Below are positions 3,947-31,836 of a stretch of 32,019 bases of DNA, one piece after another; the stretch's first letter is position 1; each line of letters starts with the position of its first letter. The notes beneath the pieces were generated by a model. The model saw nothing but the letters and a program-made list of their open reading frames with translations. It made no database searches and was not told where the DNA came from. The translations under genes and the position numbers were made by a program. This DNA comes from Patescibacteria group bacterium. Its GTDB lineage: Bacteria; Patescibacteriota; Minisyncoccia; UBA6257; WO2-44-18. The stretch is from the NCBI GenBank assembly GCA_038065375.1, contig JBBTRE010000069.1, positions 1-32,019 on the forward strand. The letters are read 5' to 3'.

Positions 3947-4738
3947 GTGAAGATCCTTGACGGACGCGTTCTTGCGAAGAAGATTTTTGATAGATTGATG
4001 ACTTGTCCGAAACCCGCCAAGCAATTAGCAATCTTGGTTCCGGCGAATAATGATAAAGCGAGCGAGGGATTTATCGCGGAGATCCGTGATGCCGCTCAGT
4101 CCTTAGCCGTTGCCACCAGAATTTTGTATCGGGCTGATGGCGCGACTACTAAAGATTTTGCTGAAGATCTTCGGCGTTGGGGATCCGACCCTTCAATCGG
4201 GGGGATAGTGCTGATTTTGCCGTTGCCGTCGGGTATTGATCGGGAAAGCGTTTTGTCCGCTATGCCGATAGATAAGGATATTGACTGCCTGAATCCCGCG
4301 AATAATTTCACCGTTCCTCCGGCCAGTCTGGCGGTTTATCACATCTGGCATGAGATTGTTCCGAAAGAGCTTCGTTGTATTGGCGATCCATGCAAAGTTG
4401 CGATGGTCGGGCGCGGTCTGCTGATTGGCAAGCCGATTGCTGATTCCTTGCGGGCTTATGGCCACCCCGTCTCGGTTTTCGGCAGAAATAGTGATCTGGC
4501 CGGACTGGCAGAGGCAGAGTTGGTAATTTTGGGTACCGGCGTTCCCAAGTTAATCTCGCCAACCATAGTGAAACAGGGAGCGATAGTTGTTGATTTCGGG
4601 TATCCGGGCGATTTTGACCACACCCACCCGGAAGCGGACAAGATTGCTTGGTACGTCCCCGCAAAGGGCGGCACTGGCCCGTTGCTGGTTGCCTGTCTGC
4701 TGGAAACTTTTTATCAGTTGACAGAAAGTCTCAAATAG
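3947..4738 (+). CDS. folD: FolD-family protein (methylene-THF dehydrogenase/cyclohydrolase fold), divergent paralog
   Basis: MKILDGRVLA, GGIVLILPLP, DKDIDCL, GRGLLIGKP, VVDFG, GGTGPLLVA. GTG start follows AAGGAGGAGG. Confidence 0.8.
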   Translation: MKILDGRVLAKKIFDRLMTCPKPAKQLAILVPANNDKASEGFIAEIRDAAQSLAVATRILYRADGATTKDFAEDLRRWGSDPSIGGIVLILPLPSGIDRESVLSAMPIDKDIDCLNPANNFTVPPASLAVYHIWHEIVPKELRCIGDPCKVAMVGRGLLIGKPIADSLRAYGHPVSVFGRNSDLAGLAEAELVILGTGVPKLISPTIVKQGAIVVDFGYPGDFDHTHPEADKIAWYVPAKGGTGPLLVACLLETFYQLTESLK

Positions 4739-7665: not shown

Positions 7666-7674
7666 CGGGGGTCA

Positions 7675-7703
7675 TTGCAGTCAGCTCTTTTTAGTGGTAT
7701 AAT
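7675..7703 (+). promoter_or_regulatory. Sigma70 promoter of clpB
   Basis: TTGCAG(7675-7680)-17 nt-TATAAT(7698-7703), with an extended -10 TG. Confidence 0.7.
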
Positions 7704-7711
7704 GCAACCGC

Positions 7712-7746
7712 TTTTAGTTTTTAACTTTTTACTTTAAACTTTTAAC
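7712..7746 (+). repeat. Heptamer array TTTTAAC-like x5 in the clpB leader
   Basis: ttttagt ttttaac tttttac tttaaac ttttaac. Confidence 0.75.
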
Positions 7747-7755
7747 TTATTGTAT

Positions 7756-17061: not shown

Positions 17062-18159
17062 TTAAGACAGATAGACGGCCTTGGTTTGTTCAACCATATT
17101 CGCCAGGTTCAGCTGATCTTTAAGAAACTGTCGGCCGCTTTTGGCGAAGTAGGCGGCCTTATCTTGGTTTTTTAGATAAAAATTAATTGCTCTTGCCAGT
17201 TCTTCGGGTTGTTGCGGGGGCATCACTAGGCCGCGTCCATCCATGACCTCCGGCATTCCTCCGACTCTGGTTGTGATAATCGGCAGACCGGCGGCCATCG
17301 CCTCCAGCATCGTATAAGGAAGGCCTTCTTTGATGGATGAAAGCAGGAAGATATCAAAGGCGCTTAGATAGGGAGCGGCCGGGGCTAGCCCGCTAAGGAT
17401 GAAAAATTTATTTTCTAACTCACGTTTTTTTATTAACCTGTCCAGTTTTACCTTTAAGTAGCCATCGCCAATGATAAAAAACTTTGCCTCCGGATTTTTT
17501 ACTAAAGCCGAGGCATTAATGAAGTCGTGGTAACTTTTTTCGGTGACCAGCCGGCCGATGGATCCGATCCAGACACCCTTGTCAGTCCCGGTTTTGGCGA
17601 GGGTGCTGATGGTTTTTCGCGCGGTGCGGCGATCCAGGAAATTAAGATTTTTCCAATCTAGGCCGACGTAGATTGTATTCAACTTTTTTTCATCGGCGAT
17701 TTTATGCCGGATCGCCAAACTTTTATCATATTCGGAGACGTTAATTATTTTATCCTGGAATCTGGCGGCGATTTTATGCAATAAAATATAAAACCAGCGT
17801 TTTCCTAATCCCAAATCATTATCCGGATTAAATACCCAGCCGTGAGCGGTGAAGACGACTTTTTTCACTCCGGCGAGTTTGGCGGCTATTGCTCCGATTA
17901 CCCCAGCTTTTGAGCTATTGAGATGGACTAGGTCGGGGCGCTCTTTTTTGAACAAAAAGAACAGTTCAATCATAGCCAGCCAATCATTAGCGAACAAAAA
18001 ATAGGGCCTTAGCTTGTTGGAAAGGAATTTTATTTCCTGGCTGCCGCCGGTGACTATCTTCGTCTCAAAACCGGCTTTCTTTATTTCCGAAGAAAGATCG
18101 CGGACGTACTTTTGGGCTCCGCCGACATCGTCTTTGGTAATCAGGTAAAGAATTTTCAT
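17062..18159 (-). CDS. Glycosyltransferase family 4
   Basis: MKILYLITKDDVGGAQ, HLNSSKAG, FTAHGW, GRLVTEK, EGLPYTMLEAMAAGLP. Start set at ATG 18159, 8 nt after an extended -10 TGGTAGAAT. Confidence 0.9.
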   Translation of the reverse strand: MKILYLITKDDVGGAQKYVRDLSSEIKKAGFETKIVTGGSQEIKFLSNKLRPYFLFANDWLAMIELFFLFKKERPDLVHLNSSKAGVIGAIAAKLAGVKKVVFTAHGWVFNPDNDLGLGKRWFYILLHKIAARFQDKIINVSEYDKSLAIRHKIADEKKLNTIYVGLDWKNLNFLDRRTARKTISTLAKTGTDKGVWIGSIGRLVTEKSYHDFINASALVKNPEAKFFIIGDGYLKVKLDRLIKKRELENKFFILSGLAPAAPYLSAFDIFLLSSIKEGLPYTMLEAMAAGLPIITTRVGGMPEVMDGRGLVMPPQQPEELARAINFYLKNQDKAAYFAKSGRQFLKDQLNLANMVEQTKAVYLS

Positions 18160-18199
18160 CCCCTTTAATTCTACCAATTTATAAGATAATATGAGACCA

Positions 18200-19345
18200 A
18201 TGTCAAAGCTACGCCCCCAGGTTGCCGTTTTTAGCTTAGCCTATGACCCGTTTGTGGGTGGGGCGGAGATTGCGGTTCGTGAAATTATCCGGCGTCTACC
18301 CGATACAGATTTCACTGTTTTGACGCGTAAGTTTGACCGAAGTTGGCCTCCGATTGAATCCTCGGGTAATTATTCGGTTGTCCGTTTGGGGCGTGGCAGG
18401 TCTGATGGGAATTATTATGGCGGCTTCTTTGGAAAAATCTCCTATATTTTTTCGGCTTATCGTTTCGCGGCGCGAACTCACAAAGCCAATCCATTTTCGG
18501 CAGTTTGGGCGGTAATGGCGTCCTACGCGGGGATCGCAGCGTTGTTTTTTAAACTACGCCATCCCGGCGTGCCTTTGTTGCTCACTTTGCAGGAGGGAGA
18601 TTCAGAGGTCCACATACTTAACCGGGTCGGGATTTTCTATCCTTTGTGGAAATTAATTTTTAAAAAAGCGGACTATATTCAGGCCATCAGTAATTTTTTG
18701 GCCGATTTCGCCAAGCGTCACGGCGCCCATTGCCCGGTTGAGGTAGTGCCCAACGGTGTTGATTTGGAAGCTTACGAAAATACAAAAAAATACGAAAGTA
18801 CGAAAAATAAGAAATTAATTATTACTACCTCAAGACTAGTTGAGAAGAACGGCATTGATATTTTAATCGCTGCATTGTCGTTGCTGTATACCGCTGACTG
18901 CAGACTGCTGATTTTAGGCGATGGTCCGGATAAAGAAAAATTGAAGGATTTTGCGGCTAAACTCGGCGTCGCGGATAAAATAGAATTCCTCGGCCACGTA
19001 GAGCCGGACCAAATACCCCACTACTTGCTACAAGCTACTATTTTCGCGCGTGCATCCCGTTCTGAAGGTTTGGGAAATTCTTTTTTGGAAGCAATGGCGG
19101 CGGGTTTGCCGGTGATCGGCACTCCGGTTGGTGGCATTCCCGACTTTTTAAAAGATGGTGAAACCGGAATTTTCTGTAAGGTTGATGATCCAAAAGATTT
19201 AGCGGAAAAAATCAAATTATTAATTAATGATGATCCGTTGCGGCGGCGAGTTGCCCTTAATGGGCGTCGTCTTGTTGAGGAAAAATACTCTTGGGATAAG
19301 ATTGCTGTTCAGATGAAAAATATTTTCCAAAAATTATGCGTATAG
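18200..19345 (+). CDS. Glycosyltransferase family 4
   Basis: GGAE, PNGVD, SRLVEKNG, SEGLGNSFLEAMAAGLPVIGTPVGGI. Start is either 18191 or 18200. Confidence 0.9.
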   Translation: MSKLRPQVAVFSLAYDPFVGGAEIAVREIIRRLPDTDFTVLTRKFDRSWPPIESSGNYSVVRLGRGRSDGNYYGGFFGKISYIFSAYRFAARTHKANPFSAVWAVMASYAGIAALFFKLRHPGVPLLLTLQEGDSEVHILNRVGIFYPLWKLIFKKADYIQAISNFLADFAKRHGAHCPVEVVPNGVDLEAYENTKKYESTKNKKLIITTSRLVEKNGIDILIAALSLLYTADCRLLILGDGPDKEKLKDFAAKLGVADKIEFLGHVEPDQIPHYLLQATIFARASRSEGLGNSFLEAMAAGLPVIGTPVGGIPDFLKDGETGIFCKVDDPKDLAEKIKLLINDDPLRRRVALNGRRLVEEKYSWDKIAVQMKNIFQKLCV

Positions 19346-20454
19346 CCATCGCTACCGGAATTTATCCTCCCGATTTGGGCGGGCCAGCCAAGCACGCTGA
19401 AGCGATGCGGGATTTTTTGGAATCCAAGAACTGTAGGGTAACCGTAATTACTTTCGGTTCTAGTCGGACTGGTGGAGTATGGGGAGTGCCGCGTTTTTTA
19501 CCCTTTGGTTTACGCCATTTTGTCTATTTCTTACGGTGTTTGATGACGGCTTTAGTTTCCGATTTGATTTACACTCAAGACGCGGCGGGTGTTGGCCTAC
19601 CCGCTTTGGTAGCGGCTAAATTGTTACGCCGCAAATTGGTGGTGAGGGTCGGCGGTGATTTAGCTTGGGAGCGCGTAAATGAAAAAACTAAGAAGCCCAT
19701 CTCTTTGAAAGAGTTCTATTCCAGCCGGCAGTACCTTTGGAAAGCCCCCATTTACTATTGGTTAACCCGTTGCGTGCTGAATTTTGCGGATGCAGTGATT
19801 GTTCCGGCAGCAATGCTAAAAGATTTATATACTCAGAAGTATTACATTGATTCAAGAAAGATTTTCCATTTTCCAAATCCTGAGTTGACTCCGGAATTGA
19901 CGGACACATCTATGCGCGCTGATACCGACCGTATTTTATTCGCCGGAAGATTCGTGGCTTATAAAAACTTGGACGTGCTAATGCGGGCTTTTGACCAGGC
20001 GCGGCAACGATCCGGGCGAGGCCAATTGGTTCTAGTTGGCGATGGTCCGGAACGGCATCATCTGGAGGCCGTTAAGAAGCAATTGGCATCCCAAGACTCT
20101 ATAGAAATCCGGTTCCCGATCTCCCGCGAAGATCTAGCCGCGCTGATCAGTGATTCTGGAGTTTGCGTCGGTCCGGCGTTAACTGAATTTAATCCTAATT
20201 TTATTTTGGAGTGCCTGGCAATGCAAAAACCGGTTCTAATCAGCGCCGAGAATGGTTTGTCAGTACAGCTACCCAGGCAGTGGCTTTTTAACGCGCGTAG
20301 CGAGTCTGAGCTAGCTCAGAAACTTGAACAGATACTTGACCCCAATCACTATCAAAACGCGATCAATGAGTTAGAGAAAATTATTCCGGCGCCAACATGG
20401 GAGAAAACAGCCGAAAACATTCACTCATTATTCTCAAAATTATGCGGATATTAA
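19336..20454 (+). CDS. Glycosyltransferase family 4
   Basis: IYPPDLGGPA, FAGRFVAYKN, VGDGPE, EFNPNFILECLAMQKPV. Confidence 0.88.
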   Translation: MRIAIATGIYPPDLGGPAKHAEAMRDFLESKNCRVTVITFGSSRTGGVWGVPRFLPFGLRHFVYFLRCLMTALVSDLIYTQDAAGVGLPALVAAKLLRRKLVVRVGGDLAWERVNEKTKKPISLKEFYSSRQYLWKAPIYYWLTRCVLNFADAVIVPAAMLKDLYTQKYYIDSRKIFHFPNPELTPELTDTSMRADTDRILFAGRFVAYKNLDVLMRAFDQARQRSGRGQLVLVGDGPERHHLEAVKKQLASQDSIEIRFPISREDLAALISDSGVCVGPALTEFNPNFILECLAMQKPVLISAENGLSVQLPRQWLFNARSESELAQKLEQILDPNHYQNAINELEKIIPAPTWEKTAENIHSLFSKLCGY

Positions 20455-21455
20455 TGCTTTCCACAGACAGTCAGATTTTTAATGTAGCTAGCCAAGTGCG
20501 CGCTCGAATTTTAGAATACGGGAAATTGTTCGAGGAATTACGGGTAATCGTTTATACGAAACCGGGACAAAAAGAAGAAGCGATCGGCAATGTTTCTTTA
20601 ATGCCGACCAATAATCGTTTCCGGCTGGGATATTTTTTTCGGGCGATTGAGTTGGGAAAAAGAGTAGTGAGAGACGGGGTGGGTTGGGTAGTTTCCTCAC
20701 AAGACCCATTCGAGACCGGTTGGGTGGCTTATCGGTTGAAGAGAATTTTTAATATACCCTTCCAGGCGCAGATCCATACCGATTTTCTTAGTCCTTATTT
20801 TGCTTCCGGTTCTCTTAAAAATCGGCTTCGAGTTTTTCTTGCGAAGTGGTTAGTGAGGCGCGCTGACCGCATCCGCGTCGTGTCAACGAGAATTAAAGAA
20901 TCTCTGATCGCTTTTGACTCTTCTTTGGAGAAAAAAATCACGGTACTACCGATATTTGTAAATGTGGAGAGGATTCGTTCTGCTGTTTCCGATTTAGAGT
21001 TACAAAAGAAATACAAATTCAATGGTGAATTTCTGGTTTTAACTGTTGCCCGAAACGCGCCGGAAAAGAATTTAAGCTTGGCTAATAAAATTGTCAGTGA
21101 ACTGAAAAATAAGTACCCGAAGCTGAGCTGGTTGCCGGTCAGCAATGCATCCTCAGCCCTTCCTTACTACAAAATCGCTGATTTATTTTTGTTGACCTCC
21201 AATTATGAAGGGTATGGAATGGCGGCCGTAGAAGCGGCGGCCGCTGGGGTTCCGGTAGTGATGACCGATGTTGGAGTGGCTTTGGGCGCTACCTTTCCGG
21301 TAGGTGATCAGGATGCAGCCGTGAAGATTATTGAGGATTTAATTAAAAATCCCGCCAGGAGACAGGAACTTGTAAATAAGCAGAACGAGTTTTTCCGAAA
21401 TTGGCCGACCAAAGAGCAATATTTGGCGGAATATAAACAAATTCTAACTTTCTAG
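20442..21455 (+). CDS. Glycosyltransferase family 4
   Basis: MRILMLSTD, VARNAPEKN, SNYEGYGMAAVEAAAAGVPVVMTDVG. Confidence 0.85.
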   Translation: MRILMLSTDSQIFNVASQVRARILEYGKLFEELRVIVYTKPGQKEEAIGNVSLMPTNNRFRLGYFFRAIELGKRVVRDGVGWVVSSQDPFETGWVAYRLKRIFNIPFQAQIHTDFLSPYFASGSLKNRLRVFLAKWLVRRADRIRVVSTRIKESLIAFDSSLEKKITVLPIFVNVERIRSAVSDLELQKKYKFNGEFLVLTVARNAPEKNLSLANKIVSELKNKYPKLSWLPVSNASSALPYYKIADLFLLTSNYEGYGMAAVEAAAAGVPVVMTDVGVALGATFPVGDQDAAVKIIEDLIKNPARRQELVNKQNEFFRNWPTKEQYLAEYKQILTF

Positions 21456-21457
21456 AT

Positions 21458-22525
21458 ATGAAAATTCTATTTATTACTCAAAAAGTAGATAAAAATGATG
21501 ATGTACTCGGGGTGTACCATCGTTGGATAGATGGACTTTCCAAACATTTTGAGAGGATTTCTGTTATTTGTCTGCAAAAAGGGCAGATAGATCTCCCCAG
21601 CAACGTTTCGGTTTATTCTTTGGGGAAAGAATTAATGGTTGGTTCTAGATGGGTGTACGCGGTCCGCTTTTTGCGATTAATTTGGCAGCTACGTCACGAC
21701 TACGATCTGGTTTTTGTTCATATGAACCCCGAGTACATAATTTTAGGTGGGTTATTCTGGAGGATTTCAAGAAAGAAAATTATTCTCTGGTATGCCCACT
21801 ATCTGAGTAATTTAAAATTAAGGATTGCTGTTTGGTTTTCAGATAGAGTGATCACGTCAATCCGATTGGCCTTTCCTTTTCCAACAAGAAAGTTACAAGT
21901 TCTGCAACAGGGAATTGATACAATACTTTTTAGTCCCGCGAAAACTTTCCGCTCGCCATCCGACGCCCTCGGAATTTTATTTCTAGGTCGGATTGCTCCG
22001 GTTAAGAACCTGGACATTTTAGTGAGAGCCGTGCAGCTTGTTCGCCAACGAGCCCCGGTTAGACTTACGATTGTCGGCGCGCCAACTTTGGGACGTTCGG
22101 TAGAGCGTGGCTATTACGAGCAGGTAAAGCTGTTAGCCAACGATTTGGGGTTGACCGGTTTAGTGGATTTTCAGAGCCCTGTAGCTAACAAAGATACACC
22201 CGCGATTTATCGGAAGCATGATTTATTTGTTAATCTTACGGTAACCGGTAGCTTTGATAAGAGCACTCTGGAGGCGATGGCCTGCGGGATTCCCGTGTTG
22301 GTAAGCAATCTGGCCTTCCGTGATATTCTCGGACCGGCGTTGGCTAATCAACTGATGTTTAAAGAAGGCGACCATCGGGATCTGGCGGACAAGATTTCTC
22401 AGCTGGCCTCTTTGAGTTCAGCGGATCGGCAGAAATTGGGTGAGAAGTTGAGAGATATCATAGCGCGCCAACACGATTTACGTCGGTTAGTGATTCGTCT
22501 CGCTGAGACTGTTAGGGCCATTTAA
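21458..22525 (+). CDS. Glycosyltransferase family 4
   Basis: MKILFITQKVD, GIDT, LGRIAPVKN, GSFDKSTLEAMACGIPV. Confidence 0.88.
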   Translation: MKILFITQKVDKNDDVLGVYHRWIDGLSKHFERISVICLQKGQIDLPSNVSVYSLGKELMVGSRWVYAVRFLRLIWQLRHDYDLVFVHMNPEYIILGGLFWRISRKKIILWYAHYLSNLKLRIAVWFSDRVITSIRLAFPFPTRKLQVLQQGIDTILFSPAKTFRSPSDALGILFLGRIAPVKNLDILVRAVQLVRQRAPVRLTIVGAPTLGRSVERGYYEQVKLLANDLGLTGLVDFQSPVANKDTPAIYRKHDLFVNLTVTGSFDKSTLEAMACGIPVLVSNLAFRDILGPALANQLMFKEGDHRDLADKISQLASLSSADRQKLGEKLRDIIARQHDLRRLVIRLAETVRAI

Positions 22526-22531
22526 TCAAAA

Positions 22532-23929
22532 ATGATTATTGATGAATCGGATCGCAAACATAGCTTCCTCCACTATTTTTTGAAGGGAGAGGCAACTAAA
22601 AGGGTTTTTGACGGCATCGCTACCGCGGTCGGTTTGGTTAACTCCTATTTCATCATTTCTAATCTTTCAATTTTTCACTTTGGTTTGTATCAATTAATGC
22701 TGTCACTGGTGTCACTTTTAGACGGTTTTAATTTAGATGTGATTGACGGAGTGGTGCAGGTAGACATGCGGCGGAGTTTCAATGTTGGCAAGCGATCGGT
22801 TGCTAAGCGGTTATATTGGGGATACGCGAAATTGAAATTAAGCATTGCCCTGGTATTTTCTGTGTCCGTTTTTTTCGGCGCCTCCTTTATCGCTAAGCAC
22901 TACGGTGAAGACCTAGGCCTTTTTATCAGAATTTCCAGCTTCCTTTTGATTTTTCGAGCCCTTCAATCTTTGGAGATAATGCTTCTAAAGTCCCTACTCA
23001 CCTTTTCGTATTGGTCTTATCCGGCTATTAGGGAATCGGCTAAATTGATTTTTGTGCTTGGGTTTTTGTTCTTTTCCGGGCAATTCACTATCACCCAGGT
23101 AATCACTGCTCATGTAATAGCCGATGGTATAGCGGTGGTGGTGATGACGCTAGCCCTTTTTATCAACAAATATCATCGGGCTTTTTCCGGCGTAGTTATG
23201 GAGTCCAAATCATTAATTTGGGGAGTCATCCGCACTTATGGGAAATGGGCGATGTTGCGTTATCTGTTTTCTAAAGTCAGTAAAAATTCCACTCCCTGGC
23301 TGATTAAATATTTTATTAATACAGAGGCAGTCGCCTTCTATGCCCTGGCGGTTAATCTGATGGCATTCATCGAAAACTTTTTCCCAATGGATGGTCTGGC
23401 GCAAATCTTAGCTTTCAAGGCGGATAATCTGGGGCAGATTTCCTTCATATTTAAAAAAGCGGTTAAGTATGCGTTTTGGCTCGGGGTTGTGTTTATGGTC
23501 GGCGGAGCGGTGGTTGCCGCCCCCGCTGTCTTATTCATCTTTCCAAAATACGAACCCGCGATGTCGGTTTTTTATGTAATGCTTTTGGCTTTGCCGGTAT
23601 TCGGAATCTATAAAATATTAAAAAGCACCCTGACGGTTTTGCGGGAGCAGAAAACCCTCACCATGAGGGTCTTTAATGAAGCCGTCCTGATTCCCGCCAC
23701 CCTAGTCGTTTTCGTTCCAATCTTTAGATTGGTCGGGGCTGGGTTTACCTACGTGCTGCTGTATTTGGAGAGATCGTGGTTTTTTTATAGCCAGTTGGTT
23801 AAAAAATATCCGGATTTTAAAATTAGCATTTGGCAATTTTTCAAATTTGACCGCACTGATCGGGATTTGCTAAAAAGAGTTGTCATCAATCCCTGGAACA
23901 AAGCCAAGGGTCTAATCACTAAAAATTAA
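22532..23929 (+). CDS. Wzx-like oligosaccharide flippase
   Basis: 465 aa with many TM segments, FGLYQL and VAFYALA patterns typical of the MOP/Wzx family, and location in a glycan operon. Confidence 0.75.
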   Translation: MIIDESDRKHSFLHYFLKGEATKRVFDGIATAVGLVNSYFIISNLSIFHFGLYQLMLSLVSLLDGFNLDVIDGVVQVDMRRSFNVGKRSVAKRLYWGYAKLKLSIALVFSVSVFFGASFIAKHYGEDLGLFIRISSFLLIFRALQSLEIMLLKSLLTFSYWSYPAIRESAKLIFVLGFLFFSGQFTITQVITAHVIADGIAVVVMTLALFINKYHRAFSGVVMESKSLIWGVIRTYGKWAMLRYLFSKVSKNSTPWLIKYFINTEAVAFYALAVNLMAFIENFFPMDGLAQILAFKADNLGQISFIFKKAVKYAFWLGVVFMVGGAVVAAPAVLFIFPKYEPAMSVFYVMLLALPVFGIYKILKSTLTVLREQKTLTMRVFNEAVLIPATLVVFVPIFRLVGAGFTYVLLYLERSWFFYSQLVKKYPDFKISIWQFFKFDRTDRDLLKRVVINPWNKAKGLITKN

Positions 23930-23931
23930 TC

Positions 23932-25092
23932 ATGAGCCAAAAAAGAAAGATTTGTTTATTTTCAGGAAAGCGTGGTGGCTTCGGCGCTTATTTGCCACTG
24001 ATGCAATTAATCGCGGCCGATCCCAATTTAGAATTGCAAATTTTACTCGGCGATATGCATGCTTCTAAGGAATTTGGTCAAACTAGCGATGAGGCCAGGA
24101 AGTTTTTCCCAAACGCCAAGATTGAAGTAATTGAAATGGGAGCGGGGCGTGGCGACAGCCCTGTAATTCGGGCGGAAAATTTAGGAGTATGTCTGCAAAA
24201 AACCCCGGCGATTTTGGAGAAGTTGAAACCCGATTTAGTGATGGTTCACGGAGACCGCGCCGAACATATGATGGTGGCTTTAGCGGCTTTAAATTTAGGC
24301 ATTCCGGTCGGACATACTCAAGGCGGAGAAGTTTCCGGTAACATTGACGATGTCCAGCGTCATGCCATTACCAAGCTGGCTCATCTGCATTTTCCGGAAA
24401 CAGAATCGGCCGCGGAGCGGATCAAAAAACTTGGCGAAGAAGGATGGCGGATTCACGTCGTCGGCTCTACCTATATTGATAGAATTGTTAAGAAAATGTA
24501 TGTACCTAATCCCGAAGCTAGGGCGAAGTATGGCTTAACAGCTGAAGAGAAATATTTTTTGATCATTTTTCACCCTGATACCTACCTTTCCCAGGAGAAA
24601 AATTACCAAGCGGCTAAAAATCTTTTGGCGGCGGTGAAAAACACTGGGCTTAAAGCGGTCATGACTTACCCCTGCTCTGATCCCGGCTATCAGGGTGTTT
24701 TGGACGCGATGGCGGAAATTAAAGATGATTCACAATTTTCGATTCACCAAAACATAGATAATTTAGATTTTTTGGGACTGATGTCCGACGCTCAGGCAAT
24801 CATCGGTAACTCATCTTCAGCTGTTGTAGAGGCGCCCTATTTTCAATTAGCGGCGGTGAACGTGGGGAGACGGCAGGAAGGACGTGACCGGGAGGAAAAT
24901 GTGGTGGACTGCGAGGCGACCGCTGAAGATATCTCGGCAAAAATAAAATTCGTCCTGGAAGACGTCGGTTTCCGGGAGAAACTGAAAAAGCGCGGCCACC
25001 GTTTAGGTAATGGCCAAGCCGCCGAGAAGATTCTTGGGGTTTTGAAAAACGTTAATATTGACGAAAAACTGATGAAAAAGCACATTGCTTAA
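23932..25092 (+). CDS. neuC: UDP-N-acetylglucosamine 2-epimerase (hydrolysing), NeuC/LegG family
   Basis: HGDRAE, HTQGGEVSGNIDDVQRHAITKLAHLHF, FHPDT, IGNSSS, NVGRRQEGR. Confidence 0.85.
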   Translation: MSQKRKICLFSGKRGGFGAYLPLMQLIAADPNLELQILLGDMHASKEFGQTSDEARKFFPNAKIEVIEMGAGRGDSPVIRAENLGVCLQKTPAILEKLKPDLVMVHGDRAEHMMVALAALNLGIPVGHTQGGEVSGNIDDVQRHAITKLAHLHFPETESAAERIKKLGEEGWRIHVVGSTYIDRIVKKMYVPNPEARAKYGLTAEEKYFLIIFHPDTYLSQEKNYQAAKNLLAAVKNTGLKAVMTYPCSDPGYQGVLDAMAEIKDDSQFSIHQNIDNLDFLGLMSDAQAIIGNSSSAVVEAPYFQLAAVNVGRRQEGRDREENVVDCEATAEDISAKIKFVLEDVGFREKLKKRGHRLGNGQAAEKILGVLKNVNIDEKLMKKHIA

Positions 25093-25121
25093 ATGTGTTT
25101 TTCTTGTTAATTTATTAACTA

Positions 25122-26288
25122 ATGAATTCAAAGCCAAAAGTTTTGATCTTGGGGGGCGATGGTTATCTGGGCTGGCCGACAGCCATGCATTTTACCCGCC
25201 AGGGTTACCAGGTGGCGATCGCGGATAACATGTCTAAGCGTGTTTGGGAGGCCGAGCTGGGCACCGCGCCGCTCTGGAGTATTCCTTTGGTGCACAAACG
25301 GGTTCGTCTTTGGAAAGACAAAGCCGGCCACGAAATCAAACTCTATGTGGGAGACATCGCGCAAAACCACCGCTTTGTTTATAAAATGTTTGAAGAATTC
25401 CGTCCGGATGCTGTTGTCCATTATGCTGAACAGCCGTCCGCTCCTTATTCCATGCATAGCCGTGAAAAGGCGGCGAATACGCAGATTAATAATGTCGCGG
25501 GTAATTTGAATGTTCTCTTTGCGATGCGGAAATATACTCCCGACGCGCATTTAGTGAAGCTGGGGACGATGGGTGAATATGGAACGCCCAACATTGATAT
25601 TGAGGAGGGCTGGCTGGACATTGAACACAAAGGAAGAAAGGACCGGGTGCTATTTCCTAAAAAGCCGGGCTCTTTTTATCACTTAAGTAAGGTGCATGAC
25701 AGTCACAACATTGAATTCGCCTGCCGCATTTGGGGATTACGCGCCACTGATCTGAACCAGGGGGTGGTTTATGGCATTGAAACCGAGGAAACAAAAATGC
25801 ATCCCGAACTTTTGACCAGCTTCCATTATGATGACGTATTCGGCACGGCGCTGAATAGATTTTGCGTGCAGGCGGTAGCCGGTGTTCCTCTGACGGTGTA
25901 TGGCCAGGGCGGACAAAAGCGCGGCTTTTTAAACATTCGTGACACCTTGCAATGTGTCCAAATCGCCGTTGATAACCCGGCGAAATCCGGAGAGTTCCGC
26001 GTTTTTAACCAGTTTACGGAAGTATTTTCAGTATTGGATTTAGCCAAAACCGTCCAGAAAGCCGGGGAAGCTCTGGGAATGAAGGTGGCTATCAATAATA
26101 TTCCTAATCCTCGGGTAGAGGCAGAACAGCATTATTACAATCCGAAAAATGATTCTTTGTTGGCGCTCGGATTGAAACCGCGTCAGCTGTCCGGTGAGCT
26201 GGTTAATTCTATGTTGGTGAGTATTCAAAAATCCAAGGATCAGATTGAGCATCACACGATTTTGCCGAAGATTACCTGGAAGCAATAA
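25122..26288 (+). CDS. sqdB: UDP-sulfoquinovose synthase (SqdB/SQD1/Agl3 family)
   Basis: GGDGYLGWPTA, EQPSAPYSM, HLVKLGTMGEYGTPNIDIEEG, PGSFYHLSKVHDSHNI, WGLRATDLNQGVVYG, GTALNRF, NPRVEAEQHYY: family-diagnostic SQD1 motifs. Confidence 0.92.
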   Translation: MNSKPKVLILGGDGYLGWPTAMHFTRQGYQVAIADNMSKRVWEAELGTAPLWSIPLVHKRVRLWKDKAGHEIKLYVGDIAQNHRFVYKMFEEFRPDAVVHYAEQPSAPYSMHSREKAANTQINNVAGNLNVLFAMRKYTPDAHLVKLGTMGEYGTPNIDIEEGWLDIEHKGRKDRVLFPKKPGSFYHLSKVHDSHNIEFACRIWGLRATDLNQGVVYGIETEETKMHPELLTSFHYDDVFGTALNRFCVQAVAGVPLTVYGQGGQKRGFLNIRDTLQCVQIAVDNPAKSGEFRVFNQFTEVFSVLDLAKTVQKAGEALGMKVAINNIPNPRVEAEQHYYNPKNDSLLALGLKPRQLSGELVNSMLVSIQKSKDQIEHHTILPKITWKQ

Positions 26289-27019
26289 TGGTGAATAAAT
26301 TAGAAGTTTTGGCAATCGTTCCGGCGCGCGGCGGTTCTAAAAGCATTCCTAAGAAGAACATTATTGATCTTAGCGGCAAGCCGCTGATCAGCTATGCGTT
26401 GGCCGCGATTAAAAACAGCAAAAGCGTGAATCGGGTAATTGTTTCTACCGACGATCAAGAAATCGCCGGTGTTGCCAAAAAATATGGCGCGGAAGTGCCT
26501 TTTCTGCGCCCGGCCGAGCTGGCTACTGATACAGCGCCGACCATGCCTGTTTTGCGGCATGTCTTGGATCAGTTGAAGCAAAGCGAGGGTTACGAGCCAA
26601 GCTGGGTTTTATTGGTCCAGCCAACCTCTCCATTTATAAAAACTGAGGAAATTGATGCCGCAATTGAGTTGATTAAGAAAAATTCCGAAGCCGATTCGGT
26701 TACCAGCGTCATTGAAGTGCCGAACAATTTTCATCCGATTAATTCTAGACTGATCACCGAGGATGGCTGGCTGCAATTCGTGGACCCGGTTGAGCGCGCG
26801 AAATATAATCAGCGACAGTCAAAGCCAAGGCGGTATGCGATAGGCAATCTTTGGGTATTCACTCTGGAGGTTATTCAAAAAAAAGATATTCCCATCGGAG
26901 ACCGCTGTCTGCCTCTGGTTATTACATCGATGAGCGCGTTCGATATCGATACCCTAGAAGACTTAGAGATTGCCGAAGCGCTTTTGCCGATTGCCTTGCG
27001 AGGCGATAGCATTAAGTAA
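26288..27019 (+). CDS. neuA: Acylneuraminate cytidylyltransferase (CMP-nonulosonate synthetase)
   Basis: IVPARGGSKSIPKKNI, STDD, PFLRPAELATD, QPTSPF, DIDTLEDL. Confidence 0.9.
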   Translation: MVNKLEVLAIVPARGGSKSIPKKNIIDLSGKPLISYALAAIKNSKSVNRVIVSTDDQEIAGVAKKYGAEVPFLRPAELATDTAPTMPVLRHVLDQLKQSEGYEPSWVLLVQPTSPFIKTEEIDAAIELIKKNSEADSVTSVIEVPNNFHPINSRLITEDGWLQFVDPVERAKYNQRQSKPRRYAIGNLWVFTLEVIQKKDIPIGDRCLPLVITSMSAFDIDTLEDLEIAEALLPIALRGDSIK

Positions 27020-27023
27020 TCAA

Positions 27024-28397
27024 ATGAAGACCATTTTTCTAACGGCTTTTACCAACTTTGTTGTCCGCAACATTTTAGACACTGAGGTTCTGCGGATTTT
27101 GAAGTCCGATCCGAATTTGAAAATAGTAATTTTGGCTCCCGATGAAGAAAGGGATTATCTTACTAAACATTTTTCTTCCGGCAATGTAGTGGTTGAAGGA
27201 GTCAGAATGCTGCCGGTTGGGACCACTAAGGCCCTGATCAGTTTTATTTGTCGCTCGCTTGTAAAAACCTATACCACCGAAATGTTTGCCAAACTCCGCT
27301 ATGGTCGCCTGGAATATTTTTGGTATCGTTTTTTTCTGAATTTATTCGCCGGCAGGGAGTGGTTTATGAAACTGATGCGCTTTCTGGATAATTTTTTGCT
27401 TAATAAAAATCGCTTTATTTTCTATATTGAAAAATATCAACCCTCTCTAGTTTTTTCTACCGACATCACCGATCGTAGCACCGGCGAGAGCGATATTGAT
27501 CTGATTAGAGAGGCGCGGCACCGCGGCATTCCAGTTATTGGCATGGTCCGTTCCTGGGACAACCTCACCTCTCGTGGGATTATCCGGCAGGTTCCGGATA
27601 AGATCCTCTTGCATAATGAAATCTTGAAAAATGAATGTGTGAAATATCACGGCATCTCGCCGGAAAAGATCATCGTCACTGGCATCCCGCACTACGACAA
27701 CTATCTGAAAGTTGAAAAGCTCTCCAGAGAAGAATTCTATCAACCCCTGGGTCTCGATCCGCGGAAGAAGACTGTGTTTTTTGTGGTAACTGCTGATGGT
27801 TTTTTAGAGAAACAATTTGGCGGGCGCAAACCCACTATTAATCGGCACATTTTGGAGTTATTAACTAAGCTGAATCCCGACAAATATCAAATTCTCGTTC
27901 GGTTTCCTCTAATCGGAACGGTAGATCTGGGTGATTTCCGGACACCGGCGAATATGGTCTTTGATCATCCCGGTAAGCTCTTCGGTAAGGGAGAGCTGGA
28001 CCGCGATGCCGACTATCATTTGATCAATTCCTTGTATCACTGTGATGTCGGGATTCCCGGCCCATCAACTATCGCTGCTGACACTTTAATTTTTGATAAG
28101 CCGCTGGTTGTGGTTGGTTTTGATAAAGAAAAAGATTTGCCGATTGAGGCGAGTATGCGTAAATTCCTGGCCTTAGAGCACCTCCGGCCGCTTACTGATC
28201 TTGGCGCGGCCAGAATTGCTGATAGCGAATCGGAATTACTCGTTATGCTTAATCAGTATCTGGAGAGTCCCGGTCTAGACGCAGAGAACCGCCGAAAAGC
28301 TATTGTGGCCATTTGTTGGAAACTAGATGGGCAGGCGAGCAAGAGGGTGGCCGATGTTATTTTGTCGGCGGCGCAGATGGATTCTCCTTTTGAATAA
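27024..28397 (+). CDS. Putative GT-B transferase (CDP-glycerol glycerophosphotransferase/sialyltransferase-like)
   Basis: VRSWDNLTSRG, VTGIPHYD, STIAAD..IFDKP, DGQASKRV; directly follows neuA. Start ATG 27024. Confidence 0.6.
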   Translation: MKTIFLTAFTNFVVRNILDTEVLRILKSDPNLKIVILAPDEERDYLTKHFSSGNVVVEGVRMLPVGTTKALISFICRSLVKTYTTEMFAKLRYGRLEYFWYRFFLNLFAGREWFMKLMRFLDNFLLNKNRFIFYIEKYQPSLVFSTDITDRSTGESDIDLIREARHRGIPVIGMVRSWDNLTSRGIIRQVPDKILLHNEILKNECVKYHGISPEKIIVTGIPHYDNYLKVEKLSREEFYQPLGLDPRKKTVFFVVTADGFLEKQFGGRKPTINRHILELLTKLNPDKYQILVRFPLIGTVDLGDFRTPANMVFDHPGKLFGKGELDRDADYHLINSLYHCDVGIPGPSTIAADTLIFDKPLVVVGFDKEKDLPIEASMRKFLALEHLRPLTDLGAARIADSESELLVMLNQYLESPGLDAENRRKAIVAICWKLDGQASKRVADVILSAAQMDSPFE

Positions 28398-29124
28398 CGT
28401 AACAAACGTTGTATGCCCAGCGATATTTTAATGCCTGTTCAAACTTCGGGAGATGTTTTGATAAACGGAAAACCAATTCTCTTAATTTTCCTTTCCAACC
28501 ACGAAAAACTTTTGGAGTGACTAGGTACTCTGTACCCAAGACTTTAAATCCTCGGAAAATAGTTTTTTCCAGAATCCCCTTTGGCAGCAGGGCAATGTGG
28601 TTATTTTCCGGACGATAACTGGCAAAATATCCCTTACGCATAAGGAAGTCTATGCTGGGACGGGATAAGACATGAGGGGTGGTAAACAGGAAGATGCCCC
28701 CTGTTTTCAAAACTCTATTGACCTCTCGGGACGCGTGAAATGGATTCTCCAGATGGGGGATTACACACCAAGCAGTTACCGCGTCGAAAGTATTATCTGG
28801 CCATGGGAGTTTTTCCGTGCTTAATTCGGCAAGTTTATATTCTTTTACCAGCGGCTTAACTTCTGCTGGCAAGTATTCTAAAATATCGTGCGCGTATAAG
28901 TTTTTGAAACCTGCATCGTTCAGTTGTTGCAGGAAGAGTCCGCTGGCAGTTCCTAAGTCCAAAACTTTTGCATCTTCTTTCCGCCAGCCCAGGTTTTTCG
29001 CATAAGAGTTCAGAACATCAATTCCAAAATTGTATCGCACATTTTTGCCGGCGCAATTTTTAAGTTTTCCCGCAACTTCATCTTTATGGCTGCCTCTCAA
29101 TTCTTCAGCTGTAAAGTATTTCAT
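28357..29124 (-). CDS. Class I SAM-dependent methyltransferase
   Basis: VLDLGTASG, LPWPDNTFDAV, HLENP, RVLKTGG. Confidence 0.88.
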   Translation of the reverse strand: MKYFTAEELRGSHKDEVAGKLKNCAGKNVRYNFGIDVLNSYAKNLGWRKEDAKVLDLGTASGLFLQQLNDAGFKNLYAHDILEYLPAEVKPLVKEYKLAELSTEKLPWPDNTFDAVTAWCVIPHLENPFHASREVNRVLKTGGIFLFTTPHVLSRPSIDFLMRKGYFASYRPENNHIALLPKGILEKTIFRGFKVLGTEYLVTPKVFRGWKGKLRELVFRLSKHLPKFEQALKYRWAYNVCYVIQKENPSAPPTK

Positions 29125-29147: not shown

Positions 29148-30359
29148 ATGGCTAAAGATAAAGCCCTATCCAACCTGATTAATCAGGAAATCAGGCGGCA
29201 GAAGGAGACCATTAACCTGATCCCTTCGGAAAACTATATTTCTCCGGAGATGTTGGCGGTTTTAGGCTCCCCATTAACTAACAAGTATTCGGAGGGCTAT
29301 CCCGGTAAGCGCTATTATCCCGGCAATCAGTTTTATGATGAGATTGAGATGTTGGCCCAAGAGCGGGCATTAAAGTTTTTTGGTTTGAAACCGGCCGAGT
29401 GGCGAGCTAATGTCCAGCCCTATTCCGGTTCTCCGGCAAATTTGGCGATCTATGCCGCTTTACTTGAGAAAAATGAGGTAATTTTGAGTTTGCGATTGGA
29501 TGCCGGCGGCCATTTGAGTCACGGACATAAAGTCAGCGCTTCAGGAAAATTTTTTAAAGTCGTGCACTATAACGTCGGAGATGATGGGCTTATTGATTAC
29601 GAACGGTTAGCGGAAATTGCCCGAGAAAGCAGCGCCAAGATAATTGTTTCCGGGTTTACTGCCTATCCTAGAAAAGTTGATTTTGCCAAAATCGGTAAAA
29701 TTGCCACTGCCGTTGGCGCCTACCATCTCGCCGATATTTCTCACATTGCCGGTTTAGTTGGCGCCGGTCTCCATCCTTCACCATTCGCGCACAGCGACGT
29801 GGTGATGACCACTACTCATAAAACTCTACGGGGACCGCGGGGAGCGGTGATTTTTTCCCGCATGGAGTTGGCTGATCGAATTGATCGGGCAGTTTTTCCG
29901 GGAATGCAAGGCGGCCCGCATAATAATATTATTGCCGCCAAGGCATTGATGTTTTTTGAAGATTCTACCCCGGCCTTTAAAAAATATCAGCAGCAAATTG
30001 TAAAAAACGCCCTGATGCTCGCCAAGTCATTGGTGAAAAATGGTTTTAAGTTGTTGACCGGCGGAACCGACACCCATCTGATGCTGATTGATTTAAGGAA
30101 TGCCGGGCTGACCGGGATGGAAGCTGAAAAGCTATTGGAAAAAAATAACATCAACGCCAATCGCAACTCCCTGCCCGGCGATCCTTCGCCGTTCAATCCG
30201 ACTGGTATTAGATTAGGAACTCCGGCTGTGACCACTCGTGGTATGAAAGAAAAGGAGATGGTGAAAATCGCCGATTTTATCTATCGCGCCTTGGTGAAGA
30301 AAGAAAATGTCGCTAAAGAAGCGTTGGTCTTGTGTAAAAAGTTCCCACTGCCCTATTAA
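29148..30359 (+). CDS. glyA: Serine hydroxymethyltransferase
   Basis: LIPSENY, NKYSEGYPGKRYY, VQPYSGSPAN, GGHLSHG, TTTHKTLRGPRG, FPGMQGGP, GIRLGTPAVTTRG. Confidence 0.97.
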   Translation: MAKDKALSNLINQEIRRQKETINLIPSENYISPEMLAVLGSPLTNKYSEGYPGKRYYPGNQFYDEIEMLAQERALKFFGLKPAEWRANVQPYSGSPANLAIYAALLEKNEVILSLRLDAGGHLSHGHKVSASGKFFKVVHYNVGDDGLIDYERLAEIARESSAKIIVSGFTAYPRKVDFAKIGKIATAVGAYHLADISHIAGLVGAGLHPSPFAHSDVVMTTTHKTLRGPRGAVIFSRMELADRIDRAVFPGMQGGPHNNIIAAKALMFFEDSTPAFKKYQQQIVKNALMLAKSLVKNGFKLLTGGTDTHLMLIDLRNAGLTGMEAEKLLEKNNINANRNSLPGDPSPFNPTGIRLGTPAVTTRGMKEKEMVKIADFIYRALVKKENVAKEALVLCKKFPLPY

Positions 30360-31169
30360 ATGATTGTTATTGATGGAAAGAAAATAGCCGGAGAGATTAT
30401 TGCCGATCTGAAAAAACGACCAGCTCCGCAAAAAGAATTGGCGGCGATTTTAGTCGGCGAAAATTCCGCCTCAGCCAGTTTTCTTCGTCAGAAAGAAAAG
30501 ATTGCCAAAGAGCTGGGAGTGAGCTTCCGACTTTATAACCTAAGCTCCGATTTTTCCGAGGGAGAGCTGATTGCCGAACTAACCAAATTAATTTCCGGCG
30601 ATCAGGTGGGTGGTTTTATTTTGCAATTACCACTGCCAGTCAAGTATGATCGCGCTAGTGTTTTAGCCGCTTTGTCATCCGGAAAAGACGTTGACGCGTT
30701 GACTGGCAAGAGTAAGGCGGTTCCCCCGGCGGTTTTAGCTGTTCAGGATGTTTTGAAAGAAGTTAATTATTCAGTAACCGACAAAGTTGTTGGTGTAGTC
30801 GGCCGGGGATTATTGGTAGGGCGACCGATTGCTGAGTATTTCACCGGGAAGTGTCGCGAGGTGATAATTTTTCACACCAAGACCGATTTGAGCCGGATTG
30901 CGGACTGCGACTTGGTGATTTGCGGCGCCGGTAAAGCTGGTTTAATAAAGCCGGAGATGCTGAAAGCCGGAGCTGAGGTAATTGATTTCGGTTTTGCTGT
31001 GGTTGATGGCAAAATCTCCGGTGACTTCGATGCGAAGGCATTAGAAGCTGGTCACTGGTCACTAGGGTTCTACACGCCAACGCCGGGGGGAACCGGTCCA
31101 ATTCTGGTTGCTGAATTGTTCAAAAATTTCTACAATATGGTATCGGATGGAATATCTAACGCCAGATGA
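30360..31169 (+). CDS. folD: Bifunctional methylene-THF dehydrogenase/cyclohydrolase
   Basis: IDGKKIA, SFLRQK, GFILQLPLP, KDVDAL, GRGLLVGRP, TPTPGGTGP; directly follows glyA. Confidence 0.9.
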   Translation: MIVIDGKKIAGEIIADLKKRPAPQKELAAILVGENSASASFLRQKEKIAKELGVSFRLYNLSSDFSEGELIAELTKLISGDQVGGFILQLPLPVKYDRASVLAALSSGKDVDALTGKSKAVPPAVLAVQDVLKEVNYSVTDKVVGVVGRGLLVGRPIAEYFTGKCREVIIFHTKTDLSRIADCDLVICGAGKAGLIKPEMLKAGAEVIDFGFAVVDGKISGDFDAKALEAGHWSLGFYTPTPGGTGPILVAELFKNFYNMVSDGISNAR

Positions 31170-31836
31170 AATTAAGGCCAATAAACAGGGCCTACAAGGC
31201 AAGTTTAAGCTTAAAGAGGCCCAACACCCCGGTACGATCAAGGGTCGTAGCGCGGGCATATTTTTTGGCGCAGTAAACGATAAAAACGCGAAAATCCTGG
31301 ATTTCGGAGTTGGATCCGGCGCCTTCCTCAAATCAATTCACGAACAAGGTTATCAAAACCTGTATGGTTGCGATATTGATAACTATCTTGCCACTGAAGT
31401 TAAACCGATGGTAAAAGAATTTCAAACTTTTGATGCCAGCTTCGGAAAGTTTCCCTGGCCCGATCAATCTTTTGACGTAGTTACCGCCTGGGAGGTTTTT
31501 GAGCACTTGGAAAACCCACATCAGGCGCTTCGGGAAGTGAACCGGATTTTGAAGGCGAACGGTTTGCTGGTAATTTCCTTACCGAACATTTTTCATATCG
31601 TCTCCCGGTTAATTTTTCTGAAGCGTGGTCTTTTCCCGCGTTGGAATGAAACTAATAATCATATTTCTATGTTTCCGCATGGAATCTTTGAGAAAACATT
31701 TTTGAAATACTTCAATCTGGAAAAAGAGGGGTACGTTTTTTCTAAAGTAAATCTACCGTTAATAAGCTCCATCAAGTGGTTGCCAGAGAATCAGTGGTTC
31801 GGTAATTGGGTTTACTACGTTCTCAAGAAGAAATAA
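31147..31836 (+). CDS. Class I SAM-dependent methyltransferase (paralog of 28357-29124)
   Basis: ILDFGVGSG, FPWPDQSFDVV, EHLENP, RILKANG. Start ATG 31147 (MEYLTPDEI) matches the paralog N-terminus MKYFTAEEL. Confidence 0.88.
   Translation: MEYLTPDEIKANKQGLQGKFKLKEAQHPGTIKGRSAGIFFGAVNDKNAKILDFGVGSGAFLKSIHEQGYQNLYGCDIDNYLATEVKPMVKEFQTFDASFGKFPWPDQSFDVVTAWEVFEHLENPHQALREVNRILKANGLLVISLPNIFHIVSRLIFLKRGLFPRWNETNNHISMFPHGIFEKTFLKYFNLEKEGYVFSKVNLPLISSIKWLPENQWFGNWVYYVLKKK

Follow-up and report, generated by a model that had tools for sequence, protein, structure and literature searches.

In the 32,019-nucleotide contig JBBTRE010000069.1 of a Patescibacteria genome, a gene for an enzyme of the UDP-sulfoquinovose synthase family (SQD1/SqdB, here SqdB) lies between neuC and neuA, two genes of the synthesis of nonulosonates (NulO), the sialic-acid-like sugars. 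We consider, on balance, that this NeuC-SqdB-NeuA-transferase block is a reduced member of a cassette which couples a particular 'SFH' subfamily of SqdB to NulO synthesis in at least four phyla. With comparable confidence, slightly on the positive side of even, we propose a route in which UDP-GlcNAc and sulfite would give UDP-6-sulfo-QuiNAc, then 6-sulfo-ManNAc and finally a CMP-9-deoxy-9-sulfo-nonulosonate, every chemical step of it being putative. As for the horizontally spread cassette as a whole, which comprises SFH SqdB, NeuC, a dedicated NeuB, NeuA and often the 3'-phosphoadenosine-5'-phosphosulfate (PAPS) reductase CysH and a 2-hydroxyacid dehydrogenase (2HADH), it is an even call whether it makes a C-sulfonated nonulosonic acid of the 9-deoxy-9-sulfo-Neu5Ac type. 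The window, that is the whole stretch analysed, is an entire contig of 32 kb (C69); the genome to which it belongs measures 0.85 Mb, is assembled in 97 contigs and is 94.6% complete.

The arrangement of the block is as the original prediction had described it from the letters alone. The open reading frame of sqdB lies between those of neuC and neuA (Table 1), sqdB and neuA meet at base 26288 in a TAATG overlap in which the SqdB stop TAA (26286-26288) donates its last A to the NeuA ATG, a putative transferase gene of the TagB/BFO_1060-like type with a PF04464 match above cut-off comes next, and neither neuB nor a sulfite-generating gene is present within the window. The family assignment of SqdB is also clear. 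The protein aligns end to end (residues 6-388) with SQD1 of A. thaliana (1QRR/1I24) at 515 bits (E 1e-153), and carries the NAD motif G-x-x-G-x-x-G as GGDGYLG at residues 11-17. Its T149, Y186, H187 and K190, which include the Y186-H187-x-x-K190 set, align with T145, Y182, H183 and K186 of SQD1 and are invariant in an alignment that includes the SqdBs of S. meliloti and Marinovum. The [ST]MG signature tabulated for this enzyme group after the catalytic Thr (PMC8987622, in excerpt) is present as TMGEYG at 149-154. With 475.7 bits the protein stays below the cut-off of 575 of the equivalog model NF041015, a cut-off that we regard as narrow because only one of the two matching control genomes (Synechococcus elongatus, Sulfolobus acidocaldarius) passes it. 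Its closest homologues carry the labels Parcubacteria, Patescibacteria or Saccharibacteria, and SqdB homologues overall number at least 8000 at E 1e-40.

The association of SqdB with NulO genes recurs far beyond this genome, a point that the original prediction had asked to check. Relatives were scanned as same-family genomes (n=20), other relatives (n=80) and a sample of the phylum (n=400), and SqdB is rare in all of them, with 5, 0 and 1 genomes carrying it, respectively. The order NeuC-SqdB-NeuA is retained in G003, G005, G008 and G012, and G002 reads NeuC-NeuA-x-x-SqdB-2HADH; the SqdB of the sister genome G003 is 96% identical to that of the window genome (G000). A wider scan took one genome per species and examined the best 80 of at least 589 SqdB relatives: a NeuA, NeuB or NeuC gene lies within 6 kb of SqdB in 28 of these 80 loci. 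The linked loci belong to Patescibacteria, Actinomycetota, Pseudomonadota and Thermodesulfobacteriota, and by record label to several Patescibacteria classes, to Gaiellaceae and other Actinomycetes, to Alpha-, Beta- and Gammaproteobacteria and to Desulfarculales. They show at least eight gene orders, among them (MT, methyltransferase; TF, transferase) NeuC-CysH-SqdB-NeuA-2HADH-NeuB-TF, NeuC-MT-NeuA-CysH-SqdB-NeuB, NeuC-CysH-SqdB-MT-TauE-NeuA-NeuB, NeuC-2HADH-NeuA-SqdB-NeuB, SqdB-NeuA-2HADH-NeuB-TF-NeuC, the compact five-gene proteobacterial operons NeuB-NeuC-2HADH-NeuA-SqdB, and the reduced NeuC-SqdB-NeuA-TF of the window. Since the adjacency is seen in four of the five SqdB-bearing relatives, and nearly so in the fifth, as well as in the 28 loci elsewhere, it exceeds chance; a linkage that persists through so many rearranged orders and transfers speaks for a common function of SqdB and the NulO genes. 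A reverse search with the window NeuC on metagenome contigs returned nine loci, of which five have SqdB or CysH alongside (NeuC-(CysH)-SqdB-NeuA-2HADH three times, NeuC-CysH at a contig end once and SqdB-NeuB-NeuC once), two have no SqdB within 5 kb and two are too short.

Some proteobacterial cassettes (L033, 7684-9878; L061, 7040-9181) hold further genes among those for NulO synthesis: one for a sulfotransferase-domain protein and two for radical SAM proteins, of the SPASM type in L033 and B12-binding in L061, with ABC exporters and a Capsule_synth protein close by in these cassettes.

The SqdBs of the linked loci carry a common signature. All 33 NulO-linked sequences of the alignment have Ser233 and His235 ('SFH' type), whereas in 37 of the 46 non-linked sequences Arg and Asp occupy the two sites ('RFD' type), which correspond to Arg229 and Asp231 of SQD1; when the sequences are re-sorted by motif, Lys39, Glu43 and Pro50 also divide the two types with no or almost no overlap. 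At these five positions (39, 43, 50, 233 and 235) the window protein thus differs from SQD1, the S. meliloti and Marinovum enzymes and 37 other loci, which have Arg, His or Asp, Ser or Thr, Arg and Asp, respectively, although it is alike in family, full-length similarity, NAD and TMG motifs and the Tyr-His-x-x-Lys set, and presumably in the addition of sulfite at C6. The RFD type includes plant SQD1, the sqdB of S. meliloti, which has a glycosyl transferase gene behind it, and that of Marinovum, behind which glycogenin-like and GalE-like genes lie in what we take to be the classical sqdBDC sulfolipid arrangement. An RxD pair is present in 63 of 95 superfamily representatives and in every SqdB seen in a sulfolipid context, and all 120 closest database homologues of the window SqdB are [S/A/G]xH. 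With hidden Markov models built from cassette genes, a NulO gene is found within 10 kb of 30 of the 41 SFH loci versus none of the 37 RFD loci, two of the 30 being doubtful (a 40-bit NeuA match, and a NeuB match overlapping the SqdB frame). The neighbours of the linked SFH SqdBs are NeuC, NeuA, NeuB and CysH, and not a sulfoquinovosyltransferase of sulfolipid or N-glycan synthesis as around SQD1, SqdB and Agl3.

In a quick maximum-likelihood tree 28 of the 33 linked SqdBs fall in one group, with 6 label changes compared with 27.3 in shuffles, and a constrained tree that holds all 46 SFH sequences as one clade reaches a likelihood above that of the free tree (p-AU 0.70), in a comparison where the columns that define the group come from the very alignment used for the tree. 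The earlier suggestion that linked SqdBs form their own clade stands in so far as they cluster, share a signature and are compatible with a single clade, and is weakened by low tree support (see below).

Several further characters of SqdB were looked at. The site of Arg101 of SQD1 and Agl3 is Pro105 in the window protein; the R101A variant of Agl3 is inactive (PMC4388408, in excerpt). As a marker of specificity this change was discarded: most of the superfamily has Pro at this site (73 of 95 representatives), RFD-type proteins among them, so that it is uninformative on specificity. A common theme was also sought among SFH loci without NulO genes (L043, L054, L097), which turned out to have a WecA-like transferase, a nucleotide-sugar dehydrogenase and unrelated genes as neighbours, with nothing in common. 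At L054 the short-chain dehydrogenase/reductase (SDR) encoded beside SqdB best matches the UDP-GlcNAcA epimerase TviC (233 bits versus 187 for GalE, both under cut-off), a weak hint at most; the remaining SDR neighbours of SFH SqdBs best match GalE, RmlB or PseB. About 16 of the 95 representatives (P0132-P0264) have SxY, NxY, AxY or FxY in place of RxD, and these variants may represent further specificities of the SQD1 fold.

The partner genes were compared in the same manner. The window NeuC exceeds the cut-off of TIGR03568 (334.8 versus 235.9 bits) and is clearly above its score of 98 bits with the non-hydrolysing WecB model TIGR00236; it also matches PF02350 with 241 bits, and sits in a NeuC clade that contains 24 of the 31 SqdB-adjacent NeuCs. 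For the window NeuA, PF02348 is above cut-off with 105.7 bits and TIGR03584 (PseF) gives 172.1 bits against a cut-off of 205.7; in the NeuA tree 28 of the 34 SqdB-adjacent copies, the window's included, lie on one side (SH-aLRT 88). The NeuB tree places 22 of 26 SqdB-adjacent copies within one clade of 25 (SH-aLRT 94), which is completed by one copy from a cut contig and by two that carry the label 'far' although they are of the same operon. Where these genomes have a second NulO cluster, its NeuB lies apart from this clade.

A NeuB encoded elsewhere in the genome was what the original prediction hinged on, and two copies are indeed present, on contigs C6 and C12. The first (376 aa) belongs to a complete second NulO cluster on C6 (3164-11765) with the order NeuC-NeuA-2HADH-x-x-DMT-DMT-NeuB, in which two unknowns and two EamA/DMT-type membrane proteins precede NeuB. 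This cluster contains the only 2HADH of the genome, and because 2HADH stands next to NeuA in SqdB-free NulO clusters, here as well as in other genomes, it is not sulfonate-specific. The second copy (292 aa; C12, 11727-12605) lies beside rmlB/rmlD, a methyltransferase, a third NeuA and a TagB-like transferase. It covers positions 1-276 of the 329-position NeuB model and, judging from its sequence, seems to be without the C-terminal domain of classical NeuB; its G003 orthologue is 96% identical. In G003 a window-like and then a C12-like stretch follow one another on one contig in equal order and at 79-96% identity, so that C69 and C12 are probably neighbours, with the C12 NeuB about 26 kb 3' of SqdB.

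Sulfite supply is built into several of the fuller cassettes. A PAPS reductase (CysH) gene lies immediately 5' of SqdB in seven cassettes (L024, L025, L026, L029, L034, L040, L045), and the four CysH proteins scored reach 184-198 bits with the model NF002537 (cut-off 154). CysH is not universal, being found in seven of the 28 linked genome loci. The Falkowbacteria-labelled cassette L045 additionally encodes CysD (442 bits) and a further 418-aa protein that may be CysN (7051-9900), which amounts to sulfate activation in a group usually regarded as devoid of sulfur assimilation. In the gammaproteobacterial L026, a TauE/SafE-family membrane protein is encoded between SqdB and NeuA. The embedding of CysH, CysD and TauE in the cassettes argues that sulfite is consumed in the fuller clusters, and disfavours a sulfite-free dehydratase role of SqdB.

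The following route would account for these associations. SqdB would oxidise UDP-GlcNAc at C4, eliminate water across C5-C6, add sulfite at C6 and re-reduce C4 to yield UDP-6-deoxy-6-sulfo-GlcNAc; NeuC, through UDP elimination and hydration of the glycal, would release 6-deoxy-6-sulfo-ManNAc, which NeuB would condense with phosphoenolpyruvate, turning C6 into C9, and NeuA would then form CMP-9-deoxy-9-sulfo-nonulosonate. The TagB/BFO_1060-like enzyme might finally transfer this sugar onto a glycan made by the upstream family 4 glycosyltransferases (GT4) and exported by the Wzx-like protein. In the fuller cassettes sulfite would be provided by PAPS reductase and the condensation performed by the dedicated NeuB; in the window genome, where sulfite would have to come from outside, either of the two non-dedicated NeuBs would have to serve. 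The chemistry of NeuC passes through 2-acetamidoglucal, so a sugar fed by NeuC should be a HexNAc. Because NeuC needs a 2-acetamido sugar and SqdB would have to act before the loss of UDP, we infer that the substrate of SqdB is UDP-GlcNAc and not UDP-Glc. A comparable sequence of events, with an SDR first and a NeuC-like enzyme second, is known from the legionaminic acid route. SQD1 and Agl3 form a 5,6-ene, and a pseudaminic acid route is likewise opened by Pen with a 5,6-ene (PMC8987622, in excerpt).

A number of observations weigh against this interpretation. SqdB itself is close to SQD1, a UDP-glucose enzyme, and retains all its catalytic residues. Five GT4 genes lie just upstream; the sulfoquinovose transferases SQD2 and SqdX are GT4 enzymes, and one of the five could be a sulfoquinovosyltransferase. 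The main linked group of the SqdB tree has an SH-aLRT of 85, and the signature residues are located in two SQD1-specific inserts, so that their co-variation may reflect no more than a structural lid. Among 13 SFH genomes without adjacent NulO genes, eight have no NeuC and five have one elsewhere (compared with one of 13 RFD-type genomes), so the SFH subfamily is not strictly tied to NulO synthesis. A dedicated NeuC lineage was sought and rejected, the SqdB-adjacent copies being split over two deep clades with 14 label changes compared with 15.6 in shuffles. Spread of the cassette by transfer means, furthermore, that the loci are not independent events. Within the window genome itself, no PAPS reductase (PF01507), adenosine-phosphosulfate kinase or ATP sulfurylase was found at a completeness of 94.6%; both NeuBs fall outside the SqdB-linked clade, and in the well-assembled relatives G002 and G005 the one NeuB present is of the type of the other cluster. 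The window has the core of the cassette, namely an SFH SqdB that adjoins NeuC and a NeuA of the SqdB-linked group, and is without the parts that mark the fuller versions, namely a NeuB of the linked clade, an embedded CysH and 2HADH: L114 reads GT4-flippase-NeuC-CysH-SqdB-NeuA-2HADH-NeuB-TF-MT, and the window repeats this order minus CysH, 2HADH and NeuB. The sulfonated nonulosonate pathway first suggested for this locus is partly supported: the presence of NeuB, the recurrent linkage and the SqdB subfamily favour it, and the divided NeuCs and the window cluster's want of a linked NeuB, CysH and 2HADH speak against it.

The alternative that survives best, although we consider it unlikely, assumes two sugars: ordinary UDP-sulfoquinovose, transferred by a GT4 enzyme, and an ordinary nonulosonate, with their genes adjacent since both enter the same glycan. 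The similarity to SQD1 with its intact catalytic set, the two deep lineages of SqdB-adjacent NeuCs and the SFH SqdBs in genomes devoid of NeuC are in its favour, and the five upstream GT4 genes keep it alive for the window genome, where a GalU-like gene (206 bits, under cut-off) is also present. The compact proteobacterial NeuB-NeuC-2HADH-NeuA-SqdB operons, however, have no sulfoquinovose glycosyltransferase, and no transferase family other than the TagB/BFO_1060-like one (11 loci) is recurrent in the cassettes. Two unconnected sugars also fit poorly with the lack of NulO genes around all 37 RFD loci, and with the distinct NeuB clade and NeuA group that accompany SqdB apart from the second NulO clusters of the same genomes. 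Precursor genes were tried as a discriminator between the two substrates and dropped, as the genome has the GalU-like gene and also a GlmU-N-terminal-like one (192 bits), each under cut-off.

Less probable still, and in our view rather improbable, is a decayed cassette. Here CysH, 2HADH and the dedicated NeuB would have been lost in this lineage, which would now make an unextended sulfo-hexosamine, or nothing without sulfite, with NeuC and NeuA working for the other NulO cluster or clusters. The window order relative to L114, the lack of detectable sulfate-activation and sulfate-reduction genes and the position of the genome's own NeuBs can all be read in this way. Against decay, none of the four genes is disrupted, the SqdBs of the window genome and G003 share 96% identity, and the reduced order is maintained across genera of the family (G003 and G005, and with 2HADH in G008 and G012), which argues for continued selection; moreover, the remaining NulO clusters are already provided with NeuC and NeuA copies of their own. 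It is very improbable, finally, that no sulfonation takes place and the SqdB-like enzyme is a UDP-GlcNAc 5,6-dehydratase or 6-deoxy-forming enzyme comparable to Pen or LegB, with a 9-deoxy nonulosonate as product: SQD1 and Agl3 do release the 5,6-ene without sulfite, Pen begins a pseudaminic route with a 5,6-ene (PMC8987622, PMC4388408, both in excerpt), and no sulfite source was found in the window genome, but CysH stands directly 5' of SqdB in seven cassettes with CysD or TauE in others, and no recurrent aminotransferase or acetyltransferase, as required for the legionaminic and pseudaminic routes, lies near SqdB (DegT occurs in five loci only, distant from SqdB).

The preferred reading, a nonulosonate sulfonated at C9, can be set beside known pathways. 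The legionaminic (LegB, LegC, LegH, LegG, LegI, LegF) route and the Pen/Pal opening of pseudaminic acid synthesis likewise combine an SDR acting on C4-C6 of a nucleotide-GlcNAc, release of a 6-modified ManNAc-type sugar by a NeuC-like enzyme, and NeuB and NeuA homologues to reach a C9-modified NulO. In the cassette, in contrast, the substituent at C6 would be a sulfonate instead of hydrogen, and its core has no aminotransferase or N-acetyltransferase and has CysH as sulfite source and 2HADH. With the NeuC-NeuB-NeuA pathway of Neu5Ac the window genome shares a NeuC that passes the NeuC/NnaA model as well as NeuA and NeuB homologues; it differs from it by the additional SDR gene between neuC and neuA, by a window cluster without its own NeuB, and by NeuB and NeuA scores under the Neu5Ac and Pse equivalog cut-offs.

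To our knowledge, sulfoquinovose, which occurs in sulfolipids and in a few N-glycans of archaea, is almost the sole example of a sugar with a carbon-bound sulfonate. The decorations known from nonulosonic acids are amino, acyl, methyl and O-sulfate groups. In the literature search, which partly judged papers by their title or the start of the abstract, none of the papers listed links a sulfoquinovose synthase to nonulosonate synthesis or names a sulfonated NulO, and the papers that name both UDP-sulfoquinovose synthase and sialic acid treat the two topics separately. For the proposed chemistry, NulO biosynthesis with an SQD1-type sulfonation step, we see about equal chances either way. If true, it would represent a new class of doubly acidic, permanently charged bacterial surface sugar and the first SQD1-type reaction on an N-acetylhexosamine, and would widen the substrate range of SQD1 enzymes. 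A sulfonate at C9 would be sulfatase-resistant, since it has no ester bond, and would give the organosulfur cycle one more sink that has gone unrecognised. Such a sugar would also matter for our picture of envelope decoration in ultra-small episymbionts, and for mass-spectrometric surveys of NulO and nucleotide sugars; at least one current pipeline leaves out sugar formulas in which N and S occur together (bioRxiv 10.64898/2026.04.20.719630, in excerpt). The compact five-gene proteobacterial operons make the hypothesis directly testable in E. coli.

The transferase gene that closes the block is listed from a TTG at 26970, and the ATG at 27024, four nucleotides past the NeuA stop, is the likelier start; a protein-atlas record of it begins at residue 19, with a feature score of 0.98 to PF04464 clusters. 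The protein matches PF04464 with 25.4 bits (cut-off 22.1) and NF046086, the BFO_1060 family, with 43 bits against a cut-off of 200. Its position recalls Tannerella forsythia, where TagB-like GT-B enzymes of this family (Tanf_01245, TFUB4_00887) are likewise encoded just after CMP-NulO genes, are needed to attach Pse and Leg derivatives, and on knock-out cause loss of the terminal NulO (PMC5420450, in excerpt). The motifs D/E-D/E-G and HP are named for this transferase family (PMC5420450, in excerpt). They were searched for as sialyltransferase motifs and gave no support: in contrast to the T. forsythia enzymes the window protein has no [DE][DE]G, and its single HP at 333-334 is not conserved among 20 aligned cassette transferases. 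As far as sequence goes, then, it may act like the BFO_1060 nonulosonate transferases, with family cut-off and motifs wanting.

Table 1. Genes of the glycan cluster, with positions and strand on the 32,019-nucleotide window
Feature	Position	Strand	Matches and remarks
GT4 glycosyltransferase, divergent from the remaining cluster	17062..18177	-	PF00534 110 bits, PF13439 73 bits
GT4 glycosyltransferases, four in a row	18191..22525	+	18191-19345, 19336-20454, 20397-21455, 21458-22525; all match PF00534/PF13692
Multi-pass membrane protein, probably a flippase of the Wzx type (a lead)	22532..23929	+	465 aa
NeuC-type hydrolysing UDP-HexNAc 2-epimerase	23932..25092	+	TIGR03568, PF02350
SQD1/SqdB-family SDR, 'SFH' subtype, predicted sulfite-adding	25122..26288	+	similarity to SQD1; Ser233, His235, Lys39, Glu43, Pro50
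NeuA-type CMP-nonulosonate synthetase	26288..27019	+	PF02348; one-base overlap with SqdB stop
TagB/BFO_1060-like GT-B transferase, candidate nonulosonate transferase	27024..28397	+	PF04464, NF046086
S-adenosylmethionine (SAM) methyltransferase, convergent with the transferase	28357..29124	-	PF08241 59 bits

The block is part of a glycan cluster that spans about 17 to 29 kb of the contig. The divergent GT4 gene has an orthologue at the equivalent position in G003 and G005. None of the four GT4 genes in a row reaches a curated NCBIfam cut-off; the counterpart of the last one precedes the flippase and NeuC also in L113, L114 and L110. The upstream flippase of the original prediction is retained as a lead: the membrane protein has no NCBIfam match and no Pfam match even at E 0.05, and language-model features place it at 0.99 to Wzx-type clusters carrying PF01943/PF13440. 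A Wzx-like gene is kept immediately 5' of NeuC in G003, G005, L113 and L114. The methyltransferase gene has its counterpart likewise after the transferase in G003, G005 and L114, and is only by inference a part of the pathway.

Downstream of the glycan cluster, genes for serine hydroxymethyltransferase (SHMT), FolD and a second methyltransferase follow (29148-31836), in an order that is retained in G003, G002 and G005; SHMT and FolD could provide a one-carbon supply beside the glycan methyltransferases. A second, weaker FolD-like gene is found at 3947-4738. Near the start of the window, a phosphoglucomutase/phosphomannomutase is encoded in two overlapping frames of the plus strand, 2359-2742 with domain I and 2730-3647 with domains II-IV, which may mean that the gene is truly split, that it has suffered a frameshift or that the sequence contains an error. 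The plus-strand gene at 12081-15887 encodes a 1268-aa protein whose sole Pfam match is a peptidoglycan-binding domain on its N-terminal side, and is followed by a gene for a tetratricopeptide repeat (TPR) protein.

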